Positions 890-55,995 of a stretch of DNA of 56,188 nt are shown here, in pieces. The stretch lies in the IMG/VR virus record IMGVR_UViG_3300030329_001842, positions 1-56,188 of that record. One strand, given 5' to 3'. The notes under the pieces were generated by a model that was not told the DNA's origin, did no database searches, and was given only the letters and a program-made list of their open reading frames with translations. This stretch comes from a virus (Duplodnaviria > Caudoviricetes). Both the position numbers and the translations under genes were made by a program. Each line of letters starts with the position of its first letter. Position 1 is the stretch's first letter.

Positions 890-948
890 ACCCCTAATTA
901 TGGCCCGAACGCACTTTTTAGAATAAACGTATAGGGAAAACAAAATCA

Positions 949-991
949 GCGGGGCTACCGGCGCCAATAATGCTGGCGCCGTGCACCCCGC
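949..991 (-). terminator. strong GC hairpin downstream of the tRNA, followed by a T-rich tract on the minus strand
   Basis: GCGGGG..CGGCGCCA-loop-TGGCGCCG..CCCCGC, then TGATTTTGTTTT on the minus strand. Confidence 0.5.
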
Positions 992-1012: not shown

Positions 1013-1088
1013 TGGCAGAGACACCGGGATTTGAACCCGGGTCCTTGGGTCGAAAGCCCAAGATGATGGACCACTACACTATGTCTCC
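1013..1088 (-). tRNA. tRNA-Glu (anticodon TTC), CCA encoded, no intron
   Basis: GGAGACA/TGTCTCT acceptor stem, TTGGG-CTTTCGA-CCCAA anticodon arm, CCGGG-TTCAAAT-CCCGG T-arm, 3' GCCA; 76 nt. Confidence 0.95.
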
Positions 1089-1090
1089 AC

Positions 1091-1410
1091 TAATAAGGTT
1101 GAGGGATGTAGGTCGTGAGAACCCACTCATGCTAACCACGGGCTTCCAACCGCGTGTGTCGCGAACACTCTAGTCATACATACCCTAGACCCGAAAGCCT
1201 CTTGATACATATGCTATTTTGCACTTCGCCATTCTTGTCAAGCGTCCCTCGCTTTAACGTTGGGTATTAACCAACGATTATGGCCAATAATTGTAAGGGA
1301 AGGGTTGCAATACTATTTTGCTATTTTCATCTTTTTAGGTCAAGACACGGTCGATAGTGTCTTAGTTCCCCTTCCGGTAATTACCCCATGGGGGGGTATT
1401 TACAATTTCC
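1091..1410 (-). ncRNA. candidate large structured non-coding RNA directly upstream of tRNA-Glu
   Basis: About 10 nested stems, e.g. 1400-07/1289-96, 1369-75/1298-1304, 1342-48/1357-63, 1258-63/1271-76, 1245-50/1101-06; no substantial ORF on the minus strand. Confidence 0.55.
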
Positions 1411-1468: not shown

Positions 1469-1552
1469 TTATTTCCTCCATTGTGTGTGTCTTGTTTGTG
1501 TTGCCATTCTTGACGTTGCTTTCCATATCTTTAATGCTTGTTTTGATGTCAT
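1469..1552 (-). CDS. basic 27-aa peptide
   Basis: MTSKQALKIWKATSRMATQTRHTQWRK; GAGG SD; downstream of TATA cassette copy 2. Confidence 0.45.
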   Translation of the reverse strand: MTSKQALKIWKATSRMATQTRHTQWRK

Positions 1553-1592: not shown

Positions 1593-1644
1593 GTATATAA
1601 AGGTTTGCCTCTTTTTGGTATATAAACCTCGAGGGCCTTTATAT
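1593..1644. promoter_or_regulatory. triple-TATA cassette, copy 2
   Basis: gtatataaaggtttgcctctttttggtatataaacctcgagggcctttatata, colinear with 838-889. Confidence 0.6.
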
Positions 1645-2347: not shown

Positions 2348-3027
2348 TTAGCCATGACCTTGGCCTTATAGTGCCTGAGATACCTAAATGCGGTAGTTCT
2401 GCAATGTATGCACATCTATTAAGCAAGGATAGCACATTGGACCGTAAAGACCATGCTGCTTTAATAGAGTATAGAAACTACATTAAGCCGGGTATTGATT
2501 ACACAGCCCGATTTTTAGGTAGAAACCCATATACGCGTGCTGTATCAGCGTTCGAATATGGAAAACGTCATGACAACCATTCCAGTCTGAATGGTGTTAC
2601 ATTATTAGATGATGATGTTACGTTCCAGATGTGGTATAATGCTATACAATATCAAGATTTGTTTAGAGACCACGGTACAGAAGGTATGTATTTTGAAGGT
2701 AAAGAAGAAGGTTTAACAGGTTGTTTTAGAACTCAGACCTCTTTTGTTAACTATATAGACGATTCTAGAAGCTTTAATAGTGAAAGATGTGACGATTTAC
2801 TTAAAAAACATGAATTTATACGCCTCGAAGAGTGGGGAAAGGATAAATCAGTTGTGAATTCTCATAGAAATACCAATGAAGGTAGGCGTTATGAGTTAAA
2901 ACACTGGAATTTATACTATACAGACATGGAGATTGTAAAGCAAATTGAGTTATTATATAAAGATGACTTTATTCTATGGGGATATGACCCAAAAATCAAT
3001 CCATATACGGAGGAACCATGGCAGTAG
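2344..3027 (+). CDS. sulfotransferase family 2-like protein
   Basis: IPKCGSS (5'-PSB), RNPYTRAVSAF (3'-PB), C-terminal LYKDDFILWGY. Confidence 0.75.
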   Translation: MISHDLGLIVPEIPKCGSSAMYAHLLSKDSTLDRKDHAALIEYRNYIKPGIDYTARFLGRNPYTRAVSAFEYGKRHDNHSSLNGVTLLDDDVTFQMWYNAIQYQDLFRDHGTEGMYFEGKEEGLTGCFRTQTSFVNYIDDSRSFNSERCDDLLKKHEFIRLEEWGKDKSVVNSHRNTNEGRRYELKHWNLYYTDMEIVKQIELLYKDDFILWGYDPKINPYTEEPWQ

Positions 3028-4019
3028 ACGGTTGGGAACCCAGTTTTATGAGGTTAAGTCCCTCAAAAATCAATACTTACCATAAATGTCCTAGAGAATT
3101 CTATTACAAATACATAGCTCAGATGCCCGAAAAGAAAACAATACATTTATTTCGTGGAACTTTAGTGCATGCTGTACTAGAAGACCTGTTTAAGAAGCAA
3201 TTTCGTAATTTTACGGCTTGGGAAAAGGGAAATCCAGCAGAATGGATGGAAGAACAGTTCCAAACTAGGTGGGCTAAGGATATAGATAGTAAAACTTGGC
3301 TGTCTGAATTACACACCGCGGACGAAATGGCAGCTATGAAGCTTGAAACACAGGAATTATTACAAAATTTTGTAGGTTCTGTCAATAAAAAGCTTAACGA
3401 AATGGTGACTTGGAAGATTTACAAGTCAAAATGGCAAGCATGGAACTCTGTAGCGCCAAAATATGCAGAAAAATGGGTAAAATCCAAAGATTATGCAGTT
3501 ATTGGGATAGTGGATGCTGTCTGTTCCGACTTTGATGGAGGAACTACTCTTCTGGATTACAAGACATCTAAGCGATATGGACCATATCTACCAGAAGATT
3601 ATTACAGACAGCTTATAATTTACGCATTTTTATATACTTTAGAGATGGGAGAGATGCCAAATTTCGTAGGTGTAAGCTATTTACGCTTTGATGACACGTT
3701 TTATGTGAAGGTTAATCAAGGTGTTTTAGATGAAGCTAAAGAAGTTATCATGTTTGTACATGATTGTTTGAAAGAAAGGATGAAAGATGAAGAAAAATAT
3801 GAACAAAAACCTCAAAATTTATGTAAATGGTGTTCTTTTTACGTCGGAAATGGAGGACCATGTGACGTACAATTACCAAAATGGAAACCAAAAGGTAAAA
3901 GCTACACCAAAAAGCCAAATGTAAAGGCTGTTAATGCTATAATTGATGACGATATCGTAGATAATCTACCTCAATATGAAGATGGAGAGAAAAATACGGT
4001 CTGGCCAGACAAAGATTAG
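3018..4019 (+). CDS. PD-(D/E)XK RecB/Cas4-like exonuclease
   Basis: LSPSKINTYHKCP, GTLVH, GIVD...DYKT, QL..YA, C-terminal CKWCSF..C. Confidence 0.85.
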   Translation: MAVDGWEPSFMRLSPSKINTYHKCPREFYYKYIAQMPEKKTIHLFRGTLVHAVLEDLFKKQFRNFTAWEKGNPAEWMEEQFQTRWAKDIDSKTWLSELHTADEMAAMKLETQELLQNFVGSVNKKLNEMVTWKIYKSKWQAWNSVAPKYAEKWVKSKDYAVIGIVDAVCSDFDGGTTLLDYKTSKRYGPYLPEDYYRQLIIYAFLYTLEMGEMPNFVGVSYLRFDDTFYVKVNQGVLDEAKEVIMFVHDCLKERMKDEEKYEQKPQNLCKWCSFYVGNGGPCDVQLPKWKPKGKSYTKKPNVKAVNAIIDDDIVDNLPQYEDGEKNTVWPDKD

Positions 4020-8347: not shown

Positions 8348-8362
8348 CGAAAGCTTTATATA
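8347..8362 (+). promoter_or_regulatory. BRE/TATA promoter overlapping the terL stop codon
   Basis: GCGAAAGCTTTATATA. Confidence 0.75.
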
Positions 8363-8391
8363 CTCCGCTGTATTATATTTATACGATAGCT

Positions 8392-9666: not shown

Positions 9667-10919
9667 GCGATTATGAATACGAGCGCTGTTTGATAGACGT
9701 AGCAGCCACACTTAAAAAGCGTGGAACTAAAAACTACGAAGAGACTGCGGCTAAAATGTGCCGCATGAGGGTAGATGAAGTCAAGACTGAAAGAAGTTTT
9801 GCTATGGATTCTGCCGGGGACCGAGAGAACAGGAGAGTTTATGCTCCTGCTATTGGAGAGATTACTAATACGGATGACTATTTAGAATTCCCTGTAATCG
9901 CTATCACGTCGGGCCCCCACGACGAAGATGGTGACCAAAAGGTTTTTATTGAACCATCCATCTTGGAAGAAAATTTAAAAGCATTTGAAACTCTTCCAGT
10001 ATACTATAATCATCAAAGGACAGACGATGACCTCTTAGGCACGGCTATCAACCCCAAAATCGTCCAACTTGAAGATGGTAAGTCAGCAATTGAAATGTTG
10101 GCTAGAATACACAAAGAGTCTGCAAAGGCAAGTGAAGTGTTAGAGAAATTGGAAAACGGTAACATGACGCATGTTAGTATAGACTGGTTATCTAAAGACG
10201 TTGATGTCTTAGGAGAGCCTTTCGCAACTGACATACGCCCTGTAGAGGTGAGCTTCATTGATAATGAGACTCGCACACCCGTTTGTGAATCATGTACAAT
10301 TGGAGAAGAAAAGGAATGTGGTGAACACCGTGAATTCGGTGAAAAAGATTCAGATTGTGGCTGTGGTGGCCATGACGATGAATCATGTGCCTGTGAAACA
10401 CACGGGACAACCAGCGAGGAAATAACTATGGCTGAAGAACAAGTAAAAACAGAAGACTCTGGAGCTGAGACACTTGTAGAGCGTGAATTCGCCGCTATGA
10501 GAACCCAGCTTGAAGAGATGAAAACTTCATACGAAGAATTGAACGCCAAGCACGAAGAAGCCCTCGCTATGATTACCAAATTTGAAGAAGTAGAAGCAAC
10601 AAGAGCAGAAGCAGAAGCAAAAGCTCGAATTGATTCCTTCGTCAACACAATCATAGAAAAGGAAGCTCTCTTAGGAAAAGTCAATGACGAATCTAAGGAA
10701 GCACGTGCTGAGGAACTCACTTCTTGGGATGAGGTTAAGCTAGAAGGTTTCTCCATCGCAATGGAGTCTATGCCAGTACCAGAAGAATCCGAAAGGACCT
10801 TCGGTAAGGGTAAAGCCCACAGTGATGAAGAACAACCCGTTGAAGCAGAAGCCGAAACACCACGCATGTTTGCGATGGAAGACGGCAGAATTGTCTTCAA
10901 AGGAGAAGAAAAGGAATAA
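9663..10919 (+). CDS. prohead protease fused to scaffolding coiled coil
   Basis: PVYYNH...G, VSI, EVSFI (herpes/HK97-type protease motifs); Cys/His linker; acidic coiled-coil C-terminal half. Confidence 0.8.
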   Translation: MSDYEYERCLIDVAATLKKRGTKNYEETAAKMCRMRVDEVKTERSFAMDSAGDRENRRVYAPAIGEITNTDDYLEFPVIAITSGPHDEDGDQKVFIEPSILEENLKAFETLPVYYNHQRTDDDLLGTAINPKIVQLEDGKSAIEMLARIHKESAKASEVLEKLENGNMTHVSIDWLSKDVDVLGEPFATDIRPVEVSFIDNETRTPVCESCTIGEEKECGEHREFGEKDSDCGCGGHDDESCACETHGTTSEEITMAEEQVKTEDSGAETLVEREFAAMRTQLEEMKTSYEELNAKHEEALAMITKFEEVEATRAEAEAKARIDSFVNTIIEKEALLGKVNDESKEARAEELTSWDEVKLEGFSIAMESMPVPEESERTFGKGKAHSDEEQPVEAEAETPRMFAMEDGRIVFKGEEKE

Positions 10920-14226: not shown

Positions 14227-17200
14227 ATGGCAGATAATAGAATTTACATCAAGCGTAGTGCAAAAGGTACAGACGTACCATCCAATACTGATTTAGAATT
14301 AGGTGAATTGGCAATTAATACGTATGATGGTAAATTATATGCCAAAAAAGATGACGGTAGTGCAAGTATCATAGAGATAGGAGCAAAAGGAGCTACTGGT
14401 ACTAAAGGACAAAAGGGAGAATTATCACCCGGACCGCAAGGACCTACAGGAGCTGATGGACCACAAGGTCCACAAGGAGTTGCTGGAGATAAGGGAGCTC
14501 AAGGACCTCAAGGAGCAGCTGGTCCACAAGGTATACAAGGTTCACAAGGAGTTGCTGGAGATAAGGGAGCTCAAGGTGCTACAGGTGCTCAAGGACCAAC
14601 AGGTGCTCAAGGACCACAAGGAGATGCTGGTCAAAAAGGTGCTACCGGTGCTCAAGGTACTCAAGGTGTTGCAGGAGATAAAGGTGCAACAGGAGCAGGT
14701 GGACCAACAGGACCTACAGGACCTCAAGGAGGAAAAGGAGAACCCGGTGTAGGTGCTAAAGGTGCTACTGGTGCTCAAGGACCTACAGGACCTCAAGGAC
14801 CTACAGGAAGTACAGGGCCACAAGGACCTGCTGGACCTACTGGACCAGCTGGAGATAAAGGTGGAACTGGACCTACAGGACCGCAAGGTAACGTAGGACC
14901 TCAAGGAAGCACAGGACCGCAAGGTACTCAAGGTACTCAAGGACCACAAGGTCAAAAAGGTGATACTGGAGCTGATGGAGCTACAGGTGCAAGAGCAGGT
15001 CTCTCATATGAAATAGAACTTGCTAATACTACAGACTCAGACCCCGGTTCAGGTAAACTTAAATTTAATAATTCTACACAAGCTAGTGCAACAGCAATAT
15101 ATATCAATGATTCTAGTAATGATGGTGCTAACGTAAGTTCATGGATAGATTCATGGGATAGTTACAATACTAATCAACCCGGTCATATCACTATATCTAA
15201 GTCAGCACATACTACTGGTACACACTACGTAGCAACTGCTGAACTTTCAACAATAACAGATGCTACTAATTATTGGAAATTAAATTTCGGTTCTTTATCT
15301 ATTTCTAACTCTTTTTCTGATGGTGATTTAGTTATATTAGAATTTCACAAAAGAGGTCAAAAAGGAGATACTGGAGACCAAGGAACTGCTGGAGATAAAG
15401 GTGACGCCGGTATTACAGGAGATAAAGGACAAAAGGGAGCTCAAGGTGCTCAAGGTGCTCAAGGAGCTCAAGGTGTTGCTGGAGATAAAGGTGGAACAGG
15501 TGCTCAAGGACCTCAGGGAACTCAAGGAGCTGGTGGACCTACAGGACCAACAGGAGCAGCTGGTGCTAAAGGAGCTACAGGTGCTCAAGGAACAGCTGGT
15601 ACTAAAGGACAAAAAGGAGCTACAGGAGCTCAAGGACCTCAGGGAGCTCAAGGTACTGCTGGAGACAAAGGTGCTACAGGTGCTCAAGGACCTCAGGGAG
15701 ATACAGGTGCAGGTGGACCAACAGGAGCGGCTGGAGATAAAGGAGCTACAGGTGCTACTGGACCTCAGGGACCACAAGGAACTGCTGGAGATAAAGGAGA
15801 TACAGGTGCTACAGGACCAACAGGACCACAAGGAACTGCTGGTGACAAAGGAGCTACAGGTGCTACAGGACCACAAGGTGCTACAGGACCTCAAGGTCCT
15901 CAAGGTGCTACAGGACCACAAGGAGATAAAGGAAGTAAAGGAGAAGCATCATTACCAGCTTCTACTTTCTTAATGCATGTAGATTTAACAGATACTACTA
16001 CTGCACCATCAACAAACGGAGAGATTGTTTTAAACCATGCTACATTAGGAAGTGTTACACAATTATCTATATACGAAGATGATGAGAGTGGTGGTACATT
16101 AGATGCAGTTCTAACAGATATGTTAGTAACTGGTAATAGAATTAAAATAGAAAAGAAAGATGATATAACCAAATGGGTTACTTTCGAAATGACTGGCAGC
16201 GGTGCTGATGTAGGTGATTACAGAACTGTTGCAGTCTCACATGAGGGCGGGGCAAGTGGTGCAGCTACTTCTTCTTTCTCAGATGAAGATGACGTTTATT
16301 TTTCCCTTTCAATGAAAGGTGATACAGGACCACAAGGACCTGTTGGACCACAAGGACCTACAGGACCTCAAGGACCACAAGGAGCTCAAGGACCACAAGG
16401 AGCGGCAGGAGATAAAGGTGCTCCCGGTGCTACAGGACCTCAAGGACCAACAGGAAGTACAGGACCAGATGGACCTACAGGAGCTGCTGGTGATAAGGGA
16501 GGAACTGGTGCTCAAGGACCTCAAGGAGCTCAAGGTGCTACAGGACCTACAGGACCTACAGGAGCAGCTGGTGCTAAAGGAGCTACAGGAGCTCAAGGAC
16601 CTCAAGGTGCTACAGGACCACAAGGAACAGCTGGTGACAAAGGTGCAACTGGTTCGACAGGACCAACAGGACCTCAAGGTACTGCTGGTGATAAAGGAGG
16701 AACTGGTGATACAGGAGCAACTGGACCTACAGGAGCAGCTGGTGCTAAAGGAGCTACAGGAGCTCAAGGACCTCAAGGTGCTACAGGACCACAAGGAACA
16801 GCTGGTGACAAAGGTGCAACTGGAACCACAGGACCTCAAGGACCACAAGGTGCTGTAGGACCTCAAGGACCTCAAGGTACTAAAGGTGCTACTGGTGACA
16901 CAGGACCTCAAGGACCTCAAGGACCTACAGGTAATCAAGGACCTCAAGGAGCTGAAGGTAACGTAGGACCTACAGGAAGTACAGGACCTCAAGGTACACG
17001 CGGTGGTGTAAAATACAAATATAGTTCTACCACCACAGAAGCTGACCCCGGACAAGGTTATTTTAGATTTGATAGTACAACTATAGGTAGTATTACTGAA
17101 ATGTATATTGATGACGCTGATGTTAACGGCGTTGATATGCAAACATGGATTAGAACATGGGATGATTCAGATTCTACGTCAGTTCATAAAGCAGTAATTC

Positions 17201-20200
17201 ATATTCATTCAGCTGATTCTTCTGATAACACATACTGTTCATTCTTAGTTAAAGGTGGTGTCAATATGACAGAAGAGTCTGGTTATTTCAAAATTGAAAA
17301 CCACACTACTGGTATGGGTGGTGCATTACCAACTAATGATGAAGATTGTGTAATATCAGTTTCTTATACTGGTTATACTGGACCTCAAGGAGCGGCTGGA
17401 CCAACAGGACCTCAAGGACCTACAGGAAGTACAGGACCTCAAGGTGCTAAAGGTGCTACTGGTGCTACAGGACCAACTGGACCACAAGGAGCAACAGGAC
17501 CACAAGGACCTCAAGGTGCTGCTGGAGATAAAGGAGGAACAGGTGCTCAAGGACCTACGGGACCTACAGGACCACAAGGTTCTACAGGACCTCAAGGTCT
17601 TGCAGGTGATAAAGGTGGAACAGGTGCTACTGGTGCAGCAGGAGATAAAGGTGCACCCGGTGCTACAGGACCACAAGGAACACAAGGTGCTGCTGGTGAC
17701 AAAGGAGGAACTGGTGATACAGGTGCAACTGGACCACAAGGTGCTACTGGTTCTAAAGGAGCTACTGGTGCTCAAGGACCAACTGGAACTACAGGACCTC
17801 AAGGACCACAAGGAGCAGCAGGAGATAAAGGTGCAACTGGAACTACAGGACCTCAAGGACCACAAGGAGATACAGGACCACAAGGAGCAGCAGGAGATAA
17901 AGGTGCTACAGGAGCTACTGGACCTCAAGGACCTCTTGGAGATAAAGGTTCAAAAGGAGGGACTGGTGCACAAGGAGCAGTAGGTGGTGTTAACTATACG
18001 TTTAGTACTACTACCACAGATGCTGACCCCGGTTCAGGTAATTTAAGATTTAATCATGGTACTATAGGGTCAGTTACTTCTATATACATAGATTTAGCAG
18101 ATACTAATGGTACAGACTTTACAGACTGGATTGATTCATTTGATGATACCGATAGTGGTACATTAACAATTAATTCAGCAGATTCTACAGATTCAACATT
18201 CTGTAATTTTACAGTAACGGCAGTAGTGTCTGCCACTGGTTACAGAAAATTAACATGTACCAATATTTCAGGTACATTACCAAGTAATAGTGAAAGTATA
18301 GTATTACAATTCTCATCATCTGGTAGTAAAGGAGCGCAAGGTTCCACTGGAGGTACAGGACCTCAAGGACCTCAAGGAACTGCTGGTGACAAAGGTGCAA
18401 CTGGTTCGACGGGACCAACTGGACCTACTGGACCAACAGGACCTCAAGGAACTGCCGGTGATAAAGGAGCACCCGGTGCTACAGGACCTCAAGGTTCTAC
18501 AGGACCTCAAGGACCTACAGGTGCTGCTGGTGACAAAGGTGGAACAGGAGCTCAAGGACCTCAAGGAAGTACAGGACCTCAAGGACCTACAGGAGCTGCT
18601 GGTGCTAAAGGAGCTACTGGTGCTCAAGGACCTACAGGAAGCACAGGACCAACAGGACCTCAAGGTTCTGCTGGAGACAAAGGTGGAACAGGTGCTCAAG
18701 GACCTCAAGGAGCTCAAGGTGCTCAAGGTGCTCAAGGAGCTGCTGGTGATAAAGGAGGAACTGGTGCCACTGGACCTCAAGGAGATGCAGGACCAACAGG
18801 ACCACAAGGAACTGCTGGTGATAAAGGTGCTCCCGGTGCTACAGGACCTACAGGACCACAAGGTACTGCTGGTGACAAAGGAGCTCCCGGTGCTACAGGA
18901 CCTACAGGACCACAAGGAAGTACAGGACCTCAAGGTGCTGCTGGAGACAAAGGAGGAACTGGTGCTACAGGACCAGATGGACCTGCTGGACCACAAGGAC
19001 CTACAGGAGCAGCTGGTGCTAAAGGAGCTACTGGTGCTGCTGGACCTACAGGACCAACAGGAAGTACAGGACCTACTGGACCACAAGGAAGTGCTGGTGA
19101 CAAAGGTGCAACTGGAAGCACAGGACCTCAAGGAGATGCAGGACCAACAGGACCACAAGGAAGTGCTGGAGACAAAGGTGCTCCCGGTGCTACAGGACCA
19201 CAAGGACCTACAGGAAGTACAGGACCAACAGGACCTCAAGGAGCTGCTGGAGACAAAGGAGGAACTGGTGCTCAAGGACCTCAAGGAGCTCAAGGAGCTC
19301 AAGGTGCTCAAGGTGCTGCCGGTGACAAAGGAGGTACAGGAGCTACAGGACCAGACGGACCTGCTGGACCAACTGGACCAACAGGAGCTGCTGGTGCAAA
19401 AGGTGCTACAGGAGCAGCTGGACCAACTGGACCTACTGGAAGTACAGGACCTCAAGGAAGTGCTGGTGACAAAGGTGCTACTGGAAGCACTGGACCTCAA
19501 GGACCTCAAGGAAGTGCTGGTGACAAAGGTGCTACTGGAAGCACTGGACCTCAAGGACCTCAAGGAAGTACAGGACCTCAAGGAAGTGCTGGTGACAAAG
19601 GTGCTCCCGGTGCTACAGGACCACAAGGACCTACAGGAAGTACAGGACCAACAGGACCTCAAGGAGCTGCTGGAGACAAAGGAGGAACTGGTGCTCAAGG
19701 ACCTCAAGGAAGTGCTGGACCTCAAGGACCTACTGGTAGTGCAGGACCAACAGGACCTACTGGTGGTGCAGGACCAAAAGGACCAACAGGAACACCTGCT
19801 GGACCACAATACGCTTATAACAACGCTGGTACCTCTGGTGCCACACAGAAAGGTGAAATGGCCTTTAACAATGCAACAAATGCAAACATTACAAACATTT
19901 ACGTTAACGAATATTCAGCAGACGATTCTTCTAACAGTATATCAAGCTGGTTAGCTGACTTAGGTAGTGGTGACCAAGAAGTAGATATAAGAATTGTCGA
20001 AGATGGTGTCCCATCTAATTTCTTAATTTTAAGAGCATCTGCAACAGCATGGTCAACATCTGTTTCAGGTGGACTTACAGAATACGCAATAGGATGTACA
20101 CATACAGCATCTACTGGTACAAGTATACCATTCTCAAACGGAGATACAGTTACATGTTCTTTCAACCCAGTAGGACAGAAAGGAGCAAAAGGACAGAAAG

Positions 20201-21159
20201 GTGCTGCTGGAGGCGGTGGCGGTGGAGGTTCTAAAGGACAGAAAGGACAAAAAGGTGCTACAGGTTCTCAAGGACCAACTGGAAGTACAGGACCTCAAGG
20301 AAGCACAGGACCAACTGGACCACAAGGTAGTGCTGGTGATAAAGGAGCAACTGGTGCTCAAGGACCTCAAGGAAGTACAGGACCAACAGGACCTGCTGGA
20401 GATAAAGGAGCTACTGGTGGTGGCGGTGGAGGTTCTAAAGGACAAAAAGGACAGAAAGGTGCTACAGGACCAACTGGACCTCAAGGACCTCAAGGAGACC
20501 CCGGAGACCCCGGTGGTGGAGGATGTCACTTCCCACCCGGTACTTGTTTTGCACCCGGTACACCAATTATGTTAGCTGATGGAACAACCAAAGCTATTGA
20601 AGAAATTGATGATGGTGAAGAAATATTAATTTATAATACAGAAACTGGTGAGTATGACGTAGAAGTACTTGAACATGGTTCCTACGCTACATACAGAAAC
20701 CACTTTGTAGATTTACACTTTGACGACGGTTCAAAGATTACCTCTACACATGAACACCCTTATTTGACAGCAGATAAAGAATGGGCTATTGTAGAGTTTG
20801 AAGAATGGATGAGAGAAAGATATCAACAAGATACAGTATTCAAAAATTTAAAACTTGAAAGTATATTAGGTATACCAACTGGTGCTAAAGGTATAGGACT
20901 TAAAGGTAAACAATTAGTACAAAAGAAAGTTGTAGATGTAGAAAAACACTGGTCAACTGGTGACAGACAGAATGCAGTATGGAATATTATAACTAAATCT
21001 AACAACTATGTTGTAGATGGTTTAATAGTAGGAACAGAAACAGATATGGATTGGGATGAGATTAATCTTTACGCTATAACTGAATATGGTATGTCATTAG
21101 AAGATATGTATCAAATGTTTGTTGATGAAGGAACACTTCCAGACAGGAGAGGTGAATAA
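14227..21159 (+). CDS. giant collagen-like fibre (2310 aa): N-terminal fibre anchor, six Gly-X-Y segments, five globular inserts, C-terminal Hint domain
   Basis: RIYIKRS...[13 protein letters not shown] anchor; roughly 1400 residues of G-X-Y; CFAPGT..T..HP..VWNI...NYVVDG. Confidence 0.92.
16552..16823 (+). repeat. 101-bp exact direct repeat inside the collagen gene (16552-16652 and 16723-16823)
   Basis: Identical copies of ggacctacaggagcagctggtgctaaagg...ggtgcaactgg. Confidence 0.8.
19447..19554 (+). repeat. perfect 54-bp tandem duplication inside the collagen gene
   Basis: ggacctcaaggaagtgctggtgacaaaggtgctactggaagcactggacctcaa, two copies. Confidence 0.85.
20545..21036 (+). other. Hint (Hedgehog/intein) autoprocessing domain starting at Cys2107
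   Basis: Block [19 protein letters not shown], block B TSTHEHP, block F VWNI..NNYVVDG; ends LIVGT instead of VHN. Confidence 0.85.
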
Positions 21160-25839: not shown

Positions 25840-25855
25840 GCGAAAGCTTTATATA
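25840..25855 (+). promoter_or_regulatory. BRE/TATA promoter of the tail operon
   Basis: GCGAAAGCTTTATATA. Confidence 0.75.
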
Positions 25856-25911
25856 CTACCGTCTGCTATTAGTATATACATACGTTCGACGGAACGTAGG
25901 AGTAACAAAGT

Positions 25912-44726: not shown

Positions 44727-44746
44727 ATATCTTTATCTCCTCGTAG

Positions 44747-44762
44747 TATATAAAGCTTTCGC
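44747..44762 (-). promoter_or_regulatory. BRE/TATA promoter overlapping the primase stop codon
   Basis: GCGAAAGCTTTATATA on the minus strand. Confidence 0.75.
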
Positions 44763-46695: not shown

Positions 46696-46754
46696 ATTAA
46701 TTCTCCTATTAGGAGCGGCAACGCGCCGTCCTATATATACTTAGTATAAGCTAG

Positions 46755-46768
46755 TATATAAAGCTTTC
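46755..46768 (-). promoter_or_regulatory. BRE/TATA promoter
   Basis: GAAAGCTTTATATA on the minus strand. Confidence 0.7.
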
Positions 46769-46770
46769 TA

Positions 46771-47574
46771 TCATTCCAAGTTAATTTCTACTTCTTTATC
46801 TGTGGTTTCTGATAATGATAAGAACATTTCGCTCTTATAATCTAGTATAACTTCAGGAAACCTTCTACCTGCCACTAATGTGATAAAACCTTGGTCTCCA
46901 CCAAAAAGATTTTCATCCCACCATCCATCAGGTATAATCTCCATAACTTCTTTATAGAAATCTATCATATATTCTCTTTCTCCTATCCATGCACCACTAC
47001 ATAGATGTTTAAAAGGAGAACCTAGCCATTCATACACTTCTTCGAGTTCTCTAACTCTTTTCAATTCGTCTTTCCATGAACCTAAATCAATTGGTGCTTT
47101 TCCGTGAGCATCCATTATACCTTGACCTGTTTCAAGATTAGGCCATTGTGGTATTTCAGCACTGAATACACATCTAGCTTCTTTACGTTGAAAAGACCTC
47201 AATACTTCATCAACAGCATCATATCCTAATACCATTACATCAGTTGCATCTAAAGCCATCACATATTTTGTTTTAACTAGACTTAAATATTTTGTCATTT
47301 TCCTTATTTTATCAAGAAAATCGAAAGGTTGTTTCATAGGTATAACAACCAATCTGTCAGATAAGTTAAGTTGTTTAAAGCAGTTTTCTAATAGTGTTTC
47401 TTCACTAGGAATACTCCACGTAATAACTGTTATATCTTCAGACATTTCACCTTCACATGGTGGTTCTGAAAAGTATTTATTTACTGCATCATCCCAACGC
47501 TTCTCCATCTTTGCGGGGCCATTGGCGTGTACAATAGGTACTAAATTTTCACTTAACTTATTTTTAAAATACAT
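46771..47574 (-). CDS. PLOD/LH3-type glycosyltransferase domain protein (apparently circularly permuted)
   Basis: YVMALDATDV, VFSAE..WP, HLCSGAWIG, GDQ, LDYKSEMF; PIVHANGPAK at the N-terminus. Confidence 0.75.
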   Translation of the reverse strand: MYFKNKLSENLVPIVHANGPAKMEKRWDDAVNKYFSEPPCEGEMSEDITVITWSIPSEETLLENCFKQLNLSDRLVVIPMKQPFDFLDKIRKMTKYLSLVKTKYVMALDATDVMVLGYDAVDEVLRSFQRKEARCVFSAEIPQWPNLETGQGIMDAHGKAPIDLGSWKDELKRVRELEEVYEWLGSPFKHLCSGAWIGEREYMIDFYKEVMEIIPDGWWDENLFGGDQGFITLVAGRRFPEVILDYKSEMFLSLSETTDKEVEINLE

Positions 47575-48191
47575 TATAACGATTCCACCATTTCATCCAT
47601 TGAAGGTTTCTTATCCCATAAATTTATAGCTATAGCATATCTTTTACCTTTAGTAATCTCAGTTACAGCGTGTAGTTTACCTGCATCGAATATAACCAAT
47701 CTATTAGGAACTGGTGCTATAAGTTCATAAGGAGCTGTTAAATCCATCTCATGAGTATCATATACTTTCAAATAACCACCTTCACACTGCGGCTCACCCA
47801 TAGGAGGGTAGTAGACAGTTCCTAATTTAGGACTAATTACTTCTCCCTTTTCATGCCACTTAGCTTCATCTTTATCAAAGTGATGGTTTAATGCATATCC
47901 ATTGTTTATAGCATCACCGTTTGTTATTATTTTATCTTTTGATAATATACCAGTCCAATGTTCAAAACCTTCTAAATCAGTTCCTACTAATTGTGGGGGA
48001 CAGTTGTATCTCCATATAGTTTCTATCAACTCATGTCTAACATCCATAGGATAGTTACTATTCCACCATCCACTCCACCATCTATATCCTTCTTTCCAAA
48101 AATCTTCATCTTTTTGAATTTTAGAAAGTAATTCTTTATCTTGTATAAAGTCATCTATTATTATCATCGGTAATGGTCTCCTCCTACCCAT
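47574..48191 (-). CDS. 2OG-Fe(II) oxygenase (prolyl-hydroxylase-like)
   Basis: HFD, EGG.L, PNRLVIFD..LHAV, KRYAIAIN; real start may be MIIIDDF. Confidence 0.8.
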   Translation of the reverse strand: MGRRRPLPMIIIDDFIQDKELLSKIQKDEDFWKEGYRWWSGWWNSNYPMDVRHELIETIWRYNCPPQLVGTDLEGFEHWTGILSKDKIITNGDAINNGYALNHHFDKDEAKWHEKGEVISPKLGTVYYPPMGEPQCEGGYLKVYDTHEMDLTAPYELIAPVPNRLVIFDAGKLHAVTEITKGKRYAIAINLWDKKPSMDEMVESL

Positions 48192-48802
48192 AATACAAGT
48201 GACTCACGAGTACCTTTAGTTACTTCAGTTACTCTATGCATCATATAAGAAGGGAATATAACTACAGTTCCTTTACCACGTGGTGCGTTAAGAGATGATT
48301 GCCCTCTCCATAATTGTAGTTCTCCTCCTTCATAATCATCACCATCAGTTAATTGAACTGTAAGACTGACTTTTCTTTGTCTTTGCATACCTGCACCACA
48401 ATCCATGTGCCAATCATAGTGTCCACCACCTTCTCTATATATAGTATGTTGTATAGCATCTCTACCATGAGATAGGTTAAAATTCCATACGTTTCTGTTA
48501 GCTTCTTCTACCATGGTCCATAATTTCTTATATAACCATATAAAATCATCACCGTGATGTACTGTATCACCATCAGTATAAGGTTGGTTTCCATTTAACC
48601 ATCTTATCTCTGATTTCCTGAATACTTCACTAGTACTACCATCTTTACCAGTTTTTCCTACTTGTGGAGGAACTTTCTCCGCTTCTTCTTGTATTAGTTT
48701 TATTTCTTCATCTGTAAATGCGTTTTCGAAATAATAATATTCTGCCATATTAACATGGCTCTCATCTATCGCATCTACCCATATCGTTGCTTTATCTATC
48801 AT
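48164..48802 (-). CDS. 2OG-Fe(II) oxygenase (P4H/PKHD-like)
   Basis: RKS, HYDWHMD, RKVSLTVQL, YEGGEL, FPSYMMHRVTEVTKGTRESLV. Confidence 0.88.
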   Translation of the reverse strand: MIDKATIWVDAIDESHVNMAEYYYFENAFTDEEIKLIQEEAEKVPPQVGKTGKDGSTSEVFRKSEIRWLNGNQPYTDGDTVHHGDDFIWLYKKLWTMVEEANRNVWNFNLSHGRDAIQHTIYREGGGHYDWHMDCGAGMQRQRKVSLTVQLTDGDDYEGGELQLWRGQSSLNAPRGKGTVVIFPSYMMHRVTEVTKGTRESLVLWVGGDHYR

Positions 48803-49358
48803 TCTTTACCTCGTTAAAGAAGAATGTCTGGAATAATCTTCCATCTTGCATATCTTCTCCAAAATATTCATCTGCTGCATGCCATAAATCTCCTCTAAAG
48901 ATTATAGCTCTATTAAATACATTAGACACTACATCTTCTCGTGTCCATTTATCATAATTATCACCATCTTCTTCTATCTTTGCTCCGTCATTATCACTAT
49001 ACATACGTGAGCCTGTTTCTTTATGCTTATAAAAGGAAGTTCCTGAATTATATACTGGTTCAGGGTGTAAATAAACTATACAAGACCAGTCAGTGTGATG
49101 GTCTGAATGTACCCATGTATTGGTTCCTTCAGTTACAAACTGATATGAACCTGTATATTCTCCTAATTTCCAGTGCATTTCATCTATTTCTATACCTAAT
49201 ATACGTTCTAAATGCTCTCTAACACCTCCACCTACGAAGGTTTCTGTTCTAGTTCCGGGATAATTCCCACTTACTTTGAATTTCTGACTTAAAGCGAATT
49301 CTCTAATTCCTTCAGGGTCGTCATAAAATCCATCTACTACTACTATTTCTTTTCTCAT
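48792..49358 (-). CDS. 2OG-Fe(II) oxygenase-like protein (DUF6445-like)
   Basis: VDGFYDDP, YPGTRT, WVHSD, IVYL, GTSFY, NVFNR, WHAA, RLFQTFF. Confidence 0.75.
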   Translation of the reverse strand: MRKEIVVVDGFYDDPEGIREFALSQKFKVSGNYPGTRTETFVGGGVREHLERILGIEIDEMHWKLGEYTGSYQFVTEGTNTWVHSDHHTDWSCIVYLHPEPVYNSGTSFYKHKETGSRMYSDNDGAKIEEDGDNYDKWTREDVVSNVFNRAIIFRGDLWHAADEYFGEDMQDGRLFQTFFFNEVKNDR

Positions 49359-49966
49359 TACGTCTCCTTTTTAACAAATGAAACTATAATATATCGAGTT
49401 CCTTTTGTTGTTGGTCTTCCACCATGTCTATGCGTTACACTTGGGAATAGAGTGCAATATCCTGCTTTAGGATTTGCTAGTGTTTGTTGTCTTGGGAACC
49501 AAGTTCCTCCACCTTCAAAGTCTGTATTTAATCCCACTGTAAAGGTATAATCAGCATGGTCATGGTGTATATCCAAGGCTGATTGGTCTGTATCTTTATA
49601 TCTTGCAATAAAGTCTTCTGAGGTAGCTCTTGTCCAAGATGTACCTTCTAATCCCCATATGTGTCTTGCTATAGGGTGACAATATTGATTTAATACATAA
49701 TCATACATATCTTTTAATTTTAAATCGTCTAATAATATATCTGTGGTTGGGTAAAACTTATGTCTTGCTGTAGTCCACTCTCCTTCTTTCTCAGCATGTT
49801 CTATGACTAAATTACAAAATTCTTCTGTGAACAGAGGAAATCTATAAATTTCAGGTCCTATTTTTTCGACGACTAAGTCCCATTGTTTATCTCTGGTTCC
49901 TCTAGCAATCATTTTCTTAGACCATGCTTCTCCGTCTAACTTATATGCTTGTAATTTTGGGTTCAT
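49358..49966 (-). CDS. stand-alone PLOD-like lysyl hydroxylase catalytic domain
   Basis: PEIYRFPLFTEEFC, YPTTDI, FIARY...Q..L..HHD..YT..VGLN..FEGGG..F, THRHGG.PTTKGTRYIIVSFV, matching the C-terminal domain of procollagen-lysine hydroxylases. Confidence 0.82.
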   Translation of the reverse strand: MNPKLQAYKLDGEAWSKKMIARGTRDKQWDLVVEKIGPEIYRFPLFTEEFCNLVIEHAEKEGEWTTARHKFYPTTDILLDDLKLKDMYDYVLNQYCHPIARHIWGLEGTSWTRATSEDFIARYKDTDQSALDIHHDHADYTFTVGLNTDFEGGGTWFPRQQTLANPKAGYCTLFPSVTHRHGGRPTTKGTRYIIVSFVKKET

Positions 49967-51356: not shown

Positions 51357-53566
51357 TCCATTAAACTTTGTTGACTTCTATCTAATAAAGTTAGAGGTGG
51401 TTTTTTCTTAACATAATGTGCCAACCCAAACTTATCTAATAGTTTAGTAACAATGTTCCAATAATAAGAAACATCTAAATCAGTTTTAGACTTAACAAGT
51501 TCTTTAATCCTATACCCATCTTTAGTTTTATAATATTCATAAGTAGTTCTTATCTCTGGTTGTATACCTACTTCTATACCCTGTTTTACGAGTGGTATCA
51601 TCATATCCGTTTCAGATTTATAATCTTCGAATTTCCTATTTAACGTTCTCCTTTGTATGAACGTCTCCATTGGTAAATCATCAAAATTATATAATTCGTC
51701 AATAAACGTATTTGTAACTCTATTATCTAACCTTGCATCTATAAGTCTATTTAAGATAGATTTATAAAACTTACTTCTGGTAGAAGCTTTAAAAGTCGAG
51801 CCGTGCTTTGTAATAGAACCATCCTCGTTACGAAGTACATAATTACCAATTTGTATCCATATTCCTTCTCTAAATACATCTTTATCTAGTGATATCCAAT
51901 TTGATTCTGTGTTAGGTATGGTGGCTTCTAGTATCAAACGTAGTCTTTTCGTTAACCAGTCTACGTCAATATCACAATTAGTATTGATACCATCAGTGTG
52001 GCAATAAACCACAGCCTTATCTCCATATTTCTTCCTGATGAGTTCGATTCCCGTAGTAAGTAAAAACCTAGCAACCGCAGTAATTGTAATACCAACAGAC
52101 ATATCACCGTAGTTGAGGTAAGGGTTTGTATTAGCTCCATAGAATGTATTCACCATAATCTTTAACGCATTGGACTTACTATCTCCTTCTTTTGTCCCCA
52201 TTTCTTTAAATGGTTTCCTTAATTCTGTAAATTGTTTACACATATCATATAGACAACTGCGTTTAGTATTGTCTATCGAAACCTTCACTCTCTTACCTAT
52301 CCTATTGTCAGGTATATAAAGGTTTCCATTTTTATACTCTAATTTGTCACTATATTCATCATATCCAACTATTTTAGTAGTATCAGGGCCTAAATTTAAG
52401 GCCATAGCTATAGAAGGATAGAATGATGCGAAATCCACTTTAATATTTTTAGCGTGGAATCCGGGTTCAAATAAATCAATATAAGCTGCTTGAAAATTAC
52501 CTTTGTCAGACTTATATATCTCAGGGTGTCTATCTCTATTAATGTCAGTAGTTACTATCTGTTCTTTAAACAACGCTCTACCTTGTAGAATCTTTGTAAC
52601 ATATGAACTAGGTGCGTTGATATACGTGTCTAACGGCACACCTATAAATTCAGCTGTGAACTCCAGTCTTGGATAGTAGTGGTCAAATAGATACTTTGTA
52701 CAATCTACATCAGACAGGACATAATCGTGGATTTCAGATAAGCTGTAATCCAGTAAATCTTTTTCACTAAAGTCTAATTCAATAGGCTCTAGTCCAAAAT
52801 ATCTACTGACAGGCTTAAGACCACGTGGTAATCCTGAAAGGGCATAATCAAGGCGAGTATGTCTTAATAAATCAAGAACTACTCTCCCTCCTGCACGCAT
52901 TCGTAGGTCGTCAGAATCTCTCTGAGGTTGCCAACCATAGTCTGACCCATCACGATTCAATAATTTCTTATAGTTTCGTATGCCATGATAGGCTGCACGA
53001 TATAGAATCTGAGGGATATCATAACCTACAAGGTTATATCCATAGATTATATCTGGGTCATAGTCTTTAACAAACTTAGCAAAGTCCATTAAGACTTGTT
53101 TATCATCTTCTCCATCCCATAGATAGACTTCACGTTCTCCGGTTGAAGTGACAATCCCGATTGCCACTACGGGGTAGTTTTCCCCGAAGGGAAACGACCC
53201 GTCGGGACTATGAGTCTCTATATCAAAACAGAGAGATTTCACAGGTTGGTCATTAGCGAATTCATAAAAATAATCTGGATGCTCTATTAAGAGTCTATCC
53301 ATAATTTGTTCTCTACCTCCATCAAGCATTAGGCTCGATGGAAGCTCTTCACCGGCTCTATAATACTCCTTTCGCAGCAAGATAGAGCCTTCTTTGCCTG
53401 TTCTATTATATTGTTTGCCTGTTTCTGCATCAGGCACATAACAGTAAGGCTTATATGGTACAACATGGCTTTCTTTCTTACCATTACGCCACATTATACT
53501 TTGTAAATTACCAGTCTCAAGATTAACAGTGTTGGGACTACATATCCCTATAAGTGGAACTTTCAA
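51347..53566 (-). CDS. polB: family B DNA polymerase with proofreading exonuclease
   Basis: ExoI FDIET, ExoII YNLVGYD, ExoIII YVLSD, motif A DFASFYPS, motif B KIMVNTFYG, motif C YCHTDG. Confidence 0.92.
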   Translation of the reverse strand: MKVPLIGICSPNTVNLETGNLQSIMWRNGKKESHVVPYKPYCYVPDAETGKQYNRTGKEGSILLRKEYYRAGEELPSSLMLDGGREQIMDRLLIEHPDYFYEFANDQPVKSLCFDIETHSPDGSFPFGENYPVVAIGIVTSTGEREVYLWDGEDDKQVLMDFAKFVKDYDPDIIYGYNLVGYDIPQILYRAAYHGIRNYKKLLNRDGSDYGWQPQRDSDDLRMRAGGRVVLDLLRHTRLDYALSGLPRGLKPVSRYFGLEPIELDFSEKDLLDYSLSEIHDYVLSDVDCTKYLFDHYYPRLEFTAEFIGVPLDTYINAPSSYVTKILQGRALFKEQIVTTDINRDRHPEIYKSDKGNFQAAYIDLFEPGFHAKNIKVDFASFYPSIAMALNLGPDTTKIVGYDEYSDKLEYKNGNLYIPDNRIGKRVKVSIDNTKRSCLYDMCKQFTELRKPFKEMGTKEGDSKSNALKIMVNTFYGANTNPYLNYGDMSVGITITAVARFLLTTGIELIRKKYGDKAVVYCHTDGINTNCDIDVDWLTKRLRLILEATIPNTESNWISLDKDVFREGIWIQIGNYVLRNEDGSITKHGSTFKASTRSKFYKSILNRLIDARLDNRVTNTFIDELYNFDDLPMETFIQRRTLNRKFEDYKSETDMMIPLVKQGIEVGIQPEIRTTYEYYKTKDGYRIKELVKSKTDLDVSYYWNIVTKLLDKFGLAHYVKKKPPLTLLDRSQQSLMEWV

Positions 53567-54088: not shown

Positions 54089-54336
54089 AAATAATATCCT
54101 ATTACTATCAAACAACATATATTACCCAGAGTATATAAAGCTATCGTTGCCCAATCTATGTCCTTTTTCTTATTTTTAACCACTTTAGCTTTAGTTGTCT
54201 TAACTTGATAATGTGGTATTGCGTTCCAACACTCATCACATAGATATGCTCTAACGTGGGGTGCGTCGCTGGTATAGTGGGTGCGACACCTGTTACAGTT
54301 GTGCCACATAACTTTATAATAATCTGGTTTACTCAT
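54076..54336 (-). CDS. zinc-finger protein with C-terminal TM
   Basis: CNRC...CDEC and a hydrophobic C-terminus. Confidence 0.6.
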   Translation of the reverse strand: MSKPDYYKVMWHNCNRCRTHYTSDAPHVRAYLCDECWNAIPHYQVKTTKAKVVKNKKKDIDWATIALYTLGNICCLIVIGYYLWIK

Positions 54337-54934
54337 TCCTTTCTGCTACTCCTAAATATGCAGCGTTGGCTTTAAAGATAGGACCACGTAATTCTTCAGG
54401 GATATAGTGGATACCTTCCATGCCTTCTTCTAGGTTCTCTTTGAATAGACGTATGTATATATCATGATTAGCACTTATATACTCATATCCCTTTTCTAAG
54501 TCTTCTTCATAATCTCTTACGAAGTTAATAATCTGATATGCTCTTCCTAATGCTCTTGCATAGTAATCAGCTTCAGGTGGACAACCTAATATACGTGCCA
54601 TCATACATCCTACTGACTCAGAAGAACCTTTACAGTATTCTAACATAGATACCATTGTGTGTTTCTTCTTATGTAAGTCTGTAAACATAGCATGATGGAA
54701 ATCTTCTAACCATTCTCCTTTAAATTCATACTTAGCACTAACTTCGTGAAATGCCTCAATAACCATTCTATATTGTTTGAAGTCATCGTCGTAATTAACT
54801 CCTTCTACCATTTCATCTATCACTCTGAGATAAGCATATAACTTATATATATCCTTTCTTATCTCATCAGGCCATTCTTCTACACATGCAAAGAATGTAG
54901 TGCTATACTCTTCCATTATGTCTTTACTACTCAT
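54329..54934 (-). CDS. crtB: phytoene/squalene synthase family protein (201 aa, start MSSKDIM)
   Basis: YSTTFF, IYKLYAYLRVIDEMVE, EYCKGSSESVG, ARALGRAYQIINFVRDYEED...Y. Confidence 0.78.
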   Translation of the reverse strand: MSSKDIMEEYSTTFFACVEEWPDEIRKDIYKLYAYLRVIDEMVEGVNYDDDFKQYRMVIEAFHEVSAKYEFKGEWLEDFHHAMFTDLHKKKHTMVSMLEYCKGSSESVGCMMARILGCPPEADYYARALGRAYQIINFVRDYEEDLEKGYEYISANHDIYIRLFKENLEEGMEGIHYIPEELRGPIFKANAAYLGVAERNE

Positions 54935-55203
54935 CCTGCTGGTCCCGGCTTTGATAGCTCTTCTTCTCCTTCTTCCATTTCCTCGAAGTATCCATACGCT
55001 TCCATTTGTTGTATCAGTGCCATACAATCTTGTATAGAAACAGCCCATGCCATATGCATAAGTTGTTCATCGGTCATTTCCGCACCTATAATAGGACTGG
55101 CACCTTCCTTTATCTGTTGCTGGTGATACATCCAACATGAGTGTAATAACTGCACCCATCTTTCTCTTTCTTCGGTTTTAGTATTATCTATTATCCCCGT
55201 CAC
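54931..55203 (-). CDS. hypothetical protein
   Basis: ORF track; ATGA overlap with the synthase start. Confidence 0.55.
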   Translation of the reverse strand: MTGIIDNTKTEERERWVQLLHSCWMYHQQQIKEGASPIIGAEMTDEQLMHMAWAVSIQDCMALIQQMEAYGYFEEMEEGEEELSKPGPAG

Positions 55204-55495
55204 CTTTCAATACTCCTCTTTCTTTTCTATCAGTGAGTTTTAAGTAGTTCTCATGTAATACTTCTACTAGTGTCATGTCATACATATCAAATAGTCTTGC
55301 CATATACCACATTACATCACCGAGTTCTCCACGAATCTCTTTATACTTATCTCCATCTCCACGAACTTGTTTCTTGTATTTACCCAATACTTCTCCAACT
55401 TCGTTTGCTAAACCTATCATTAGGTATTCTTCTTCTTTTTCTTTAGGGTAAACAGCTGTTTCCCTTGTCCATTTTTTATATGTTTCAAAATCCAT
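55184..55495 (-). CDS. mazG: MazG-like NTP pyrophosphohydrolase
   Basis: GLANEVGEV..KYKK...ELGDVMWY...N..KL.DR..RGVL.GDGDNR. Confidence 0.9.
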   Translation of the reverse strand: MDFETYKKWTRETAVYPKEKEEEYLMIGLANEVGEVLGKYKKQVRGDGDKYKEIRGELGDVMWYMARLFDMYDMTLVEVLHENYLKLTDRKERGVLKGDGDNR

Positions 55496-55669
55496 CTATA
55501 TCTCCAAATCTCTATATTCATCAGCTGATAGAAAACCTGATAATGTTCCTCTACCTGCTATGTTTCTTCTCATATATCTCAGGAAGTCTATTGTAACTTC
55601 TAATCCTTTATCTTCTAAGTCTTCGTTTATACATTGTAAATGCCATATTAAATCTTCTATCACTATCAT
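55496..55669 (-). CDS. small hypothetical protein (57 aa)
   Basis: MIVIEDLIWHLQCINEDL...; GAGGAG SD; abuts both neighbours. Confidence 0.55.
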   Translation of the reverse strand: MIVIEDLIWHLQCINEDLEDKGLEVTIDFLRYMRRNIAGRGTLSGFLSADEYRDLEI

Positions 55670-55995
55670 ATAACTAACTCCTCTGGTACCATATCTCTAC
55701 GATATAACCAGTTTCTTTCTGCGGGTAGATACCTATATACTAGGTCAGCCTTTATATCTGTTTGCACGGGCCAAGGCTTTATCAATATTAAATCATTGAC
55801 TCTACACCACATTCTACGTTTGAGTTTGCCCGGAATTCTTATCATACGATTATTACCATCTTCACATAGAGCAGACATACGTGAACCACCTTGCATTTCT
55901 CTGATGACAGCAAATTGCATGTCACCACGTGGTAGTTTACCTGCTCTTTTCTCTGTGCTTCCAGCTTTTGATTTCTTCAACTTCTTCTTTCCCAT
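55666..55995 (-). CDS. eif1a: archaeal translation initiation factor 1A (aIF-1A)
   Basis: FAVIREMQGGSRM...CEDG..RMIRIPGKLKRRMWCRVNDLILIKPWPVQTD.KADLVYRY; start MGKKK after GGAG. Confidence 0.9.
   Translation of the reverse strand: MGKKKLKKSKAGSTEKRAGKLPRGDMQFAVIREMQGGSRMSALCEDGNNRMIRIPGKLKRRMWCRVNDLILIKPWPVQTDIKADLVYRYLPAERNWLYRRDMVPEELVI

Follow-up and report, generated by a model that had tools for sequence, protein, structure and literature searches.

Two uncatalogued, self-contained RNA modules beside the tRNA-Glu gene of a tailed virus from marine samples

The stretch of DNA analysed here, which is 56,188 nt long and is referred to throughout as the window, carries genes for a terminase, a portal, an HK97-type capsid protein, a family B polymerase and a class II RNR, and is a contig of a tailed virus. 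It also encodes a translation factor (55666-56010, minus strand; Pfam PF01176), whose best solved relatives are the archaeal aIF1A proteins, with an E value of ~3e-26 to archaeal aIF1A as against ~1e-12 to eukaryotic eIF1A. More than 300 close relatives of this viral aIF1A (109 aa) are found in marine metagenomes. Judging from the aIF1A and from the TATA-like motifs described below, the host is probably an archaeon. The locus is present in 17 DNA runs labelled marine or aquatic, each of them containing at least half of the sampled words, and these runs come from at least eight studies.

Elsewhere in the window, Pfam identifies a squalene/phytoene synthase family protein (54329-55048, minus strand) and several 2OG-Fe(II) oxygenase family proteins (47574-49966, minus strand), and a MazG-like pyrophosphohydrolase (55184-55495, minus strand) was read from the translation. 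An open reading frame of 2310 aa (14227-21159, plus strand) lies where the G+C content rises to 0.45-0.50, compared with ~0.36 elsewhere, and other frames overlapping it are also open over long distances. Small, very basic peptides with the motif ...SK.A.K.WKA... are encoded at 29-193 and 1469-1552 (both minus strand) and in two of the compared loci (L002 and L003; L-numbers are the labels of these loci throughout), where they come first in short units.

The second of these peptides opens what is predicted to be a short transcription unit on the minus strand, laid out as follows in the direction of reading.

1593-1602, minus strand: TATA-like motif CTTTATATAC, found in excess as exact copies; likely promoter of the unit
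1469-1552, minus strand: basic small ORF of 27 aa from the ORF list, opening the unit; inside an RNA-library contig (1371-1559)
1400-1468, minus strand: conserved micro-ORF of 22 aa (MNKYQSSLLTWLVGISYATRKL), usually 5′ of D1; synonymous changes across loci
1382-1398, minus strand: hairpin UACCCC/GGGGUA, present in the MFE fold and specific to the window
1298-1375, minus strand: module D1, long form; supported by covariation and homologues
1277-1297, minus strand: linker with a recurrent CUUAY tail, which is found behind many modules
1101-1276, minus strand: module D2; supported by covariation and by an RNA-library contig (1108-1275)
1089-1100, minus strand: 12-nt spacer from D2 to the tRNA; similarly short gaps at seven other D2-tRNA junctions
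1013-1088, minus strand: tRNA-Glu, anticodon UUC, CCA encoded (ARAGORN; Rfam tRNA, 62.3 bits)
934-991, minus strand: GC-rich hairpin followed by a U-rich run, recognised by eye; likely end of the unit, comparable hairpins following D2 in loci without a tRNA

The motif CTTTATATAC has ten exact copies in the window against 0.31 expected, each 5′ of co-oriented genes (838-847, 863-872, 1593-1602, 2016-2025, 8354-8363, 25847-25856, 44746-44755, 46754-46763, 52312-52321 and 54131-54140), and it looks like the TATA-box promoter of this virus. Two of the copies, 25 nt apart, sit 5′ of the gene at 570-797. The next copy of the motif on the minus strand stands beyond the hairpin at ~991-934, which was not called by a simple terminator-type scan with a loop limit of 3-8. 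The tRNA-Glu is the only tRNA in the window by both ARAGORN and Rfam. A PHROG search returned no match for the 27-aa ORF (1469-1552) or for the micro-ORF (1400-1468).

In the earlier note the stretch 1091-1410 was described as one unrecognised two-domain RNA of ~320 nt, folding on the minus strand and abutting the tRNA gene, and the sequence, strand and coordinates are as it described. The minus strand folds with -97.4 kcal/mol (z = -2.84) and is better than all of 100 shuffles; for the plus strand (z = -2.20), 2 of the 100 shuffles do equally well. Folding energy alone is therefore weak evidence, and the decisive support comes from covariation in homologues, which were gathered and show strong compensatory change in both halves. 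There is a conserved, structured non-coding RNA fold on the minus strand, as proposed, although not in the form of one molecule.

Relatives were collected as 80 viral loci, fetched with the PD-(D/E)XK nuclease (3018-4019) as anchor. Among these, blastn and nhmmer found the RNA in L002, L003, L007 and L045. L047 has the second half (D2) only, L040 has the halves in the opposite order followed by tRNA-Glu, and five more loci contain a ~36-nt piece of the first half (D1) alone. The arrangements seen are D1 alone, D2 alone, D2-D1 (L040 and L086), D1-D1 and a fusion of D1 to the known RNA manA, and in L089 the two halves are 850 nt apart. The "domains" are thus found alone, swapped, in tandem and at a distance, and they must be regarded as separate modules; the single two-domain RNA of the earlier note does not survive this comparison.

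D1 (~78 nt here) consists of a variable closing helix round a near-invariant core of ~29 nt. Its mini form is a helix of 6-8 bp round the core, and its long form, which is the type in the window, is the mini form plus an inserted hairpin. In the window it is made up as follows.

1375-1369/1304-1298, minus strand: D1 helix P1
1364-1357/1348-1341, minus strand: D1 helix P1a
1340-1305, minus strand: near-invariant core of D1, containing hairpin P2 (1321-1318/1310-1307)

In an alignment of 18 mini D1 sequences (A2), 92.6% of cells are paired and 8 of 12 pairs are compensatory, with a covariation score that none of 500 shuffles matched. For the long form (A3, 10 sequences), 20 pairs are predicted, 11 of them compensatory. 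Twenty-eight viral contigs contain the core pattern, as do at least 119 contigs from marine metagenomes. Among the matches listed there are 115 distinct copies, 96 mini and 19 long. The mini copies carry 41 distinct closing-stem pairs, and 70 of the 96 have at least six contiguous pairs in a fixed register, some of the other 26 being bulged or register-shifted. The invariance of the core in the metagenome copies is circular, because these copies were collected by exact match to it. When a covariance model of D1 (R2) was applied to 81 protein-anchored sources, the 11 copies that it found shared one core, and no divergent copy in these sources rose above noise. The core is AT-rich, with the direct repeat AAAATAG, and its antisense matches within the window were just 10-11-mers, at chance expectation.

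D2 (~176 nt here) has nine helices.

1276-1271/1263-1258, minus strand: P0, leading hairpin
1250-1245/1106-1101, minus strand: P1, closing helix
1244-1241/1230-1227, minus strand: P2, 4-bp hairpin with a conserved 11-nt loop
1224-1221/1132-1129, minus strand: P3
1216-1204/1184-1171, minus strand: P4, forming with P4b a long bulged hairpin
1199-1195/1192-1188, minus strand: P4b
1168-1166/1158-1156, minus strand: P5, hairpin
1154-1150/1141-1137, minus strand: P6, hairpin with an invariant loop of 7-8 nt
1126-1121/1113-1108, minus strand: P7, hairpin between P3 and the 3′ strand of P1

P1 encloses P2 and P3, and P3 in turn encloses P4/P4b, P5 and P6. The P6 stem covaries in L108, L110 and L101, and its loop includes the triplet GAA, which is the codon of the adjacent tRNA-Glu. 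An invariant 22-mer of D2 is present in 11 viral contigs, and a profile search added five diverged copies. RNAalifold gave 46 pairs for the 11 D2 sequences of alignment A1, 28 of them compensatory. A covariance model (R1) was then used to align 53 copies from 53 sources that had been pre-selected as holders, which reduced to 39 distinct sequences (A5). In A5, 97.7% of cells are paired, a percentage inflated by the fitting of the alignment to R1, and 37 of the 46 pairs are changed on both sides. None of 500 shuffles reached any of five measures, and when the partners were slid by 1-3 columns as a control, pairing fell to 36-40%. A naive scan of A5 for extra covarying columns, which is noisy from clade structure, suggested an extension of P7 alone. 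Several positions of D2 are G-U in most sequences (pair 77-240 in 33 of 39 and pair 216-231 in 35 of 39), and the folding strand is therefore the minus strand of the window, as the earlier note had argued from G-U pairs.

Three other readings of conserved motifs were considered and set aside. A pseudoknot in which the CUUAY tail pairs with the conserved internal loop AAGG of P4 could form in some sequences, but the pairing is inconsistent in L082, L083, L109 and others. For a box C/D reading of GAUGA in D1 and a K-turn reading of GGCGAAG in D2, the partner strands are without the features that such motifs require.

Eleven helices had been named from the window sequence, and seven of these are supported by the homologues: GGAAGGG/CCCUUCC, UAAGACAC/GUGUCUUG, GCAA/UUGC, CGUUGG/CCAACG, GAGGGA/UCCCUC, GUGU/ACAC and GUGGGU/ACCUAC. 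Two are contradicted, CUUGA/UCAAG and UCUAG/CUAGA, which clash with the covarying helices P2 and P4. The remaining two are not conserved: the outer helix AAUUGUAA/UUACAAUU is kept in L002 and broken in L003 and L007, and the UACCCC/GGGGUA hairpin is conserved in none of the three. P2, P3, P4/P4b and P6 are additional to the earlier set. The sequence GCAAAAUAG, which had been placed in hairpin loops of both domains, does have two copies (1321 and 1222), but the copy in D2 spans a helix strand and a junction.

A protein-coding origin of the conservation was also considered. The open frames here (38 to 83 codons) vary among close relatives in their reading frame, position and length; no conserved open frame was found across homologues over the D1/D2 region, and the lengths of D2 (175, 183, 185, 186, 187, 191 and 203 nt) differ by amounts that are not multiples of three. 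Two possible coding sequences, a mini-ORF of 5 codons within the D1 core and an AUG-initiated ORF in D2, were rejected, the AUG being missing in L047 and the structure explaining the conservation.

The description of the RNA as unrecognised holds, in that none of the 4227 families of Rfam 15 matches it. At gathering score the whole window gives the tRNA only, and cmscan of 900-1700 at E<=10 gave nothing but tRNA-centred noise, with nothing in 1091-1410. No match was found by blastn of 900-1900 against a phage collection, and a literature search, which was not exhaustive, found nothing describing D1 or D2. The exact core of D1 has no match in a set of cellular genomes representing 185,579 species by one genome each. 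The exact core of D2 has one match in these 185,579 genomes, inside a bacterial coding region with the rest of D2 missing, and this is a chance match. By the measure of such exact-core scans of cellular genomes, D1 and D2 are virus-specific. It is concluded that D1 and D2 are two RNA families not yet catalogued, unrelated to each other and self-contained.

The surroundings of the modules are very varied. D2 does end about 12 nt before the tRNA 5′ end, as previously noted, since its closing helix stops at 1101, and the tRNA-Glu is adjacent both here and in some relatives. However, ARAGORN found no tRNA in L002, L003, L007 or L045, and the link to the tRNA is therefore optional. Eight of the 39 distinct D2 copies are followed by tRNA-Glu within ~8-13 nt, and two more reach tRNA-Glu via an interposed D1. 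Nine of the 39, including these two, are directly followed by a mini D1, and the remaining copies mostly have terminator-like hairpins downstream. The only tRNA type in related loci is Glu-UUC, found in 14 of 119 metagenome loci among the matches listed. What follows D1 may be a further RNA module, a promoter, a terminator or, in a few cases, an ORF. The U/A-rich CUUAY tail recurs after copies of both D1 and D2, and also in the manA consensus.

In many loci a co-oriented micro-ORF lies 5′ of D1. It encodes 22-23 aa in two sequence types ending in ...YATRKL(G), and precedes either D1 or tRNA-Glu; synonymous changes among the loci show it to be read as protein. A regular expression for its end matched within 220 nt 5′ of 30 of the 115 D1 copies listed, which is an undercount because many contigs are short. 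In L131, L159, L175 and L011 the micro-ORF is directly followed by tRNA-Glu, with neither D1 nor D2 between them, so that the modules look like inserted cassettes.

Two further structured elements were seen in these neighbourhoods. An uncatalogued RNA of ~270 nt, with no Rfam match, follows mini D1 in ten loci (L039 at about 3200-3430 on the minus strand, L066, L076, L103, L104, L065, L064, L067, L073 and L048); it has a shortened D2-like core (P1-P2 plus the following purines) and a hairpin whose loop is of the UUGGAAG type. In L048, L102, L047, L115 and L124, D1 or D2 has beside it a small recurring hairpin with ...UUCAGGGGCCGAAUCCCGA... in its loop; this hairpin may be yet another module.

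Expression was assessed by comparing four RNA-library runs with the locus. A contig of 168 nt (depth 2, no mismatches, 100% identical) spans 1108-1275, which is almost exactly D2. A second, of 189 nt (depth 4.1), spans 1371-1559, from the small ORFs to the first strand of D1 P1, and starts near the predicted transcript start (1559). A third match, at 1644-1768, has loose ends, and in the fourth run the tRNA alone was matched, with eight differences. The contigs are compatible with transcription of the locus and perhaps with cutting at the borders of the modules. They are assemblies whose true ends cannot be read, their depths are low (2 and 4), and the libraries may contain DNA; equally, the lack of coverage of the D1 core and the tRNA is not evidence of absence.

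Our preferred explanation, to which we give a probability of roughly 0.5, is that D1 and D2 are stable RNAs cut from a transcript that runs from the small ORFs through the RNA modules to tRNA-Glu, and that each binds an invariant partner in the host. The TATA-like promoter would drive a short unit of small ORFs, 22-aa micro-ORF, D1, D2, tRNA-Glu and terminator hairpin, in which D1 and D2 would form the tail part. In each module a closing helix free to vary would clamp the near-unchanging core, presenting a pocket or surface for one constant partner, for which a host protein, the ribosome, a tRNA and a small molecule are all candidates. Once freed as stand-alone stable RNAs, the modules would act in trans on this partner during infection. 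The reasoning is that varying closing helices, near-invariant cores and cassette-like shuffling together point to portable modules that bind an unchanging partner.

The 3′ end of D2 could be produced by RNase P cutting at the 5′ end of the tRNA, or by termination where a tRNA is absent. Release by tRNA processing, as suggested in the earlier note, is made plausible by the layout of the unit and the short gap in those loci where tRNA-Glu follows, but 29 of the 39 D2 copies have no tRNA, and it therefore cannot be general.

Four other explanations were weighed against release and action in trans. The modules might instead act in cis, as 3′-UTR or leader elements that govern how the micro-ORF mRNA and the pre-tRNA are stabilised, terminated or processed. 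Much of the layout would suit this: in many loci D1 follows the stop codon of the micro-ORF at a distance of 6-100 nt, the modules are often at the 3′ ends of transcription units, before terminator-like hairpins or the next promoter, the CUUAY tail recurs after the closing helix, and in cyanophage P-SSM3 manA is found 15 nt 3′ of pstS. Simple stabilisation or termination, however, requires neither an invariant core of ~29 nt nor a fold of nine helices, the neighbours on both sides are very diverse (19 contexts with several members plus many single ones), and some D1 copies, such as those of L094-L098, have no micro-ORF with them. We consider a purely cis-acting role unlikely, though it deserves to be kept in mind. 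A ligand-sensing aptamer of the riboswitch type, as has been proposed for manA, is a more doubtful proposition. Stems that covary freely, combined with nucleotides that never change in the junctions and loops, are the classic pattern of an aptamer, manA keeps company with the modules and is fused to D1 in four loci, and a few D1 copies stand ~8-12 nt before a start codon (L096, L106 and L225). Against this, a protein gene does not come next here or in most loci, where the next element is instead a tRNA, a terminator, a promoter or a further RNA module, and there is no evident expression platform.

The case for a single RNA of ~320 nt, with a function like that of GOLLD or ROOL, is that D1 is directly 5′ of D2 in the window, L002, L003, L007, L045, L082 and L083, that this order is found in about 18 of the 39 D2 copies, and that the whole stretch folds better than shuffles. 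It is nevertheless very improbable, given that the order is reversed in L040, L086 and seven further copies, that D1 stands alone in most loci and D2 in L047, that the two are widely separated in L089, that the outer helix, which would join the ends, lacks conservation, and that Rfam has no match. Least credible of all is a function of the DNA itself, for instance as an origin, packaging or recombination site, with the RNA fold incidental. The locus is near a divergent promoter region and many copies are near contig ends, and the AT-rich D1 core with its direct repeat might suit such a site, but read from the opposite strand the G-U pairs that dominate several positions would turn into A-C mismatches, the modules always run in the direction of the transcription unit around them, and contigs from RNA libraries match.

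To our knowledge, RNAs with complex folds whose jobs are unsolved are rare, each one solved so far has given new biology, and almost no viral non-coding RNAs are known for uncultured marine archaea. Here there are two new RNA families, found widely in samples from the ocean, in viruses that probably infect such archaea; both are supported by many compensatory changes, and the fold of one has nine helices. The orphan RNA manA is carried in the same genomes and in some cases on the same transcript, and a tRNA-Glu and a conserved 22-aa peptide belong to the same unit as the modules. The locus thus offers a concrete, testable setting for asking what RNAs of the manA type do, and it is an example of viral RNA modules shuffled like cassettes. 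If the partner were a host translation factor, this would be a new viral route to taking over archaeal cells.

A bolder idea, which we regard as a long shot, is that D2, D1 and manA belong to an unseen class of virus-made RNA acting on the host translation machinery. In one version, suggested by the loop sequences, D2 would recognise tRNA-Glu, the P6 loop offering the GAA codon and other loops docking on the tRNA. In another, by analogy, D2 would be a self-assembling RNA particle, of the kind reported for other tRNA-linked phage RNAs. In either version, it would together with the viral aIF1A and tRNA-Glu redirect protein synthesis in marine archaea.

Several known systems invite comparison. 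GOLLD and ROOL are elaborately folded RNAs of several hundred nt, carried by viruses and prophages and often found beside tRNA genes. D1 and D2 resemble them in being virus-borne, in elaborate folding and in their tRNA-gene neighbourhood, but are small separable modules, whereas GOLLD and ROOL are much larger single RNAs. The likeness to these RNAs of bacterial phages raised in the earlier note found no backing: the GOLLD and ROOL models, presumably both included in the Rfam 15 library, gave no match in 1091-1410 at E<=10 (cmscan), and the host is probably an archaeon rather than a bacterium. No match to archaeal RNase P RNA or SRP RNA was found in Rfam at E<=10, and the shuffling of modules also argues against either identity. 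D2 is reminiscent of tRNA-linked precursors of the mascRNA type in lying 12 nt before a tRNA 5′ end, where RNase P would set its 3′ end. It differs from them in not being tRNA-like by any model, and most D2 copies have no tRNA; ARAGORN and the Rfam tRNA clan found no tRNA or tRNA-like structure in D1 or D2, the weak hits falling on the true tRNA. T-boxes, which are bacterial, share with D2 a multi-helix structure of ~180-200 nt, invariant loops and, here, a GAA opposite tRNA-Glu, but D2 lies 5′ of a tRNA gene and not of an aminoacyl-tRNA synthetase gene. There is no T-box match in Rfam and no protein gene downstream of D2, and the complementarity of 3-4 nt between D2 and tRNA-Glu could be a chance match.

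A further comparison is with manA, an orphan riboswitch candidate known from marine settings and cyanophages (PMC2864571, PMC9964418), which the first of these sources describes from cyanophages and gamma-proteobacteria. manA is common in this probably archaeal virus group. Of 15 related viral loci, 4 have a match to its Rfam model (RF01745), as have 9 of 13 large loci from metagenomes; matches lie, for example, in L082 (3048-3233), L108 (5389-5569), L103 (10625-10796) and L089 (10032-10215), and manA directly abuts D1 in L082, L108, L133 and L161. No homology between manA and the two modules was detected. manA is absent from the whole window at its gathering threshold (55.2 bits) and from 900-1700 at E<=10; in L082 its model matches 3048-3233 only and not the adjacent D1 and D2; and the D2 model R1 finds nothing in the manA of L082, L103, L108 and L089 at E<=10, nor in that of cyanophage S-CREM1 with filters off. 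In S-CREM1, manA is flanked by tRNA-Leu and tRNA-Asn at distances of 0-1 nt, and in P-SSM3, where it follows pstS after 15 nt, there is no tRNA near it, so that the tRNA-embedded context was seen in one of the two phages checked. The S-CREM1 region (L232, record 9745-10643) has wcaG, manA and abiF RNAs interleaved with tRNA-Met, -Leu, -Asn and -Gly. Unlike manA, D1 and D2 were not seen in S-CREM1, and all of their copies come from this probably archaeal virus group. In other respects there is resemblance: manA is likewise a marine viral structured RNA, of ~190 nt, it occurs in the same viruses and is sometimes fused to D1, and like D2 it has a leading hairpin, a closing helix round several hairpins and a short conserved tail after it.
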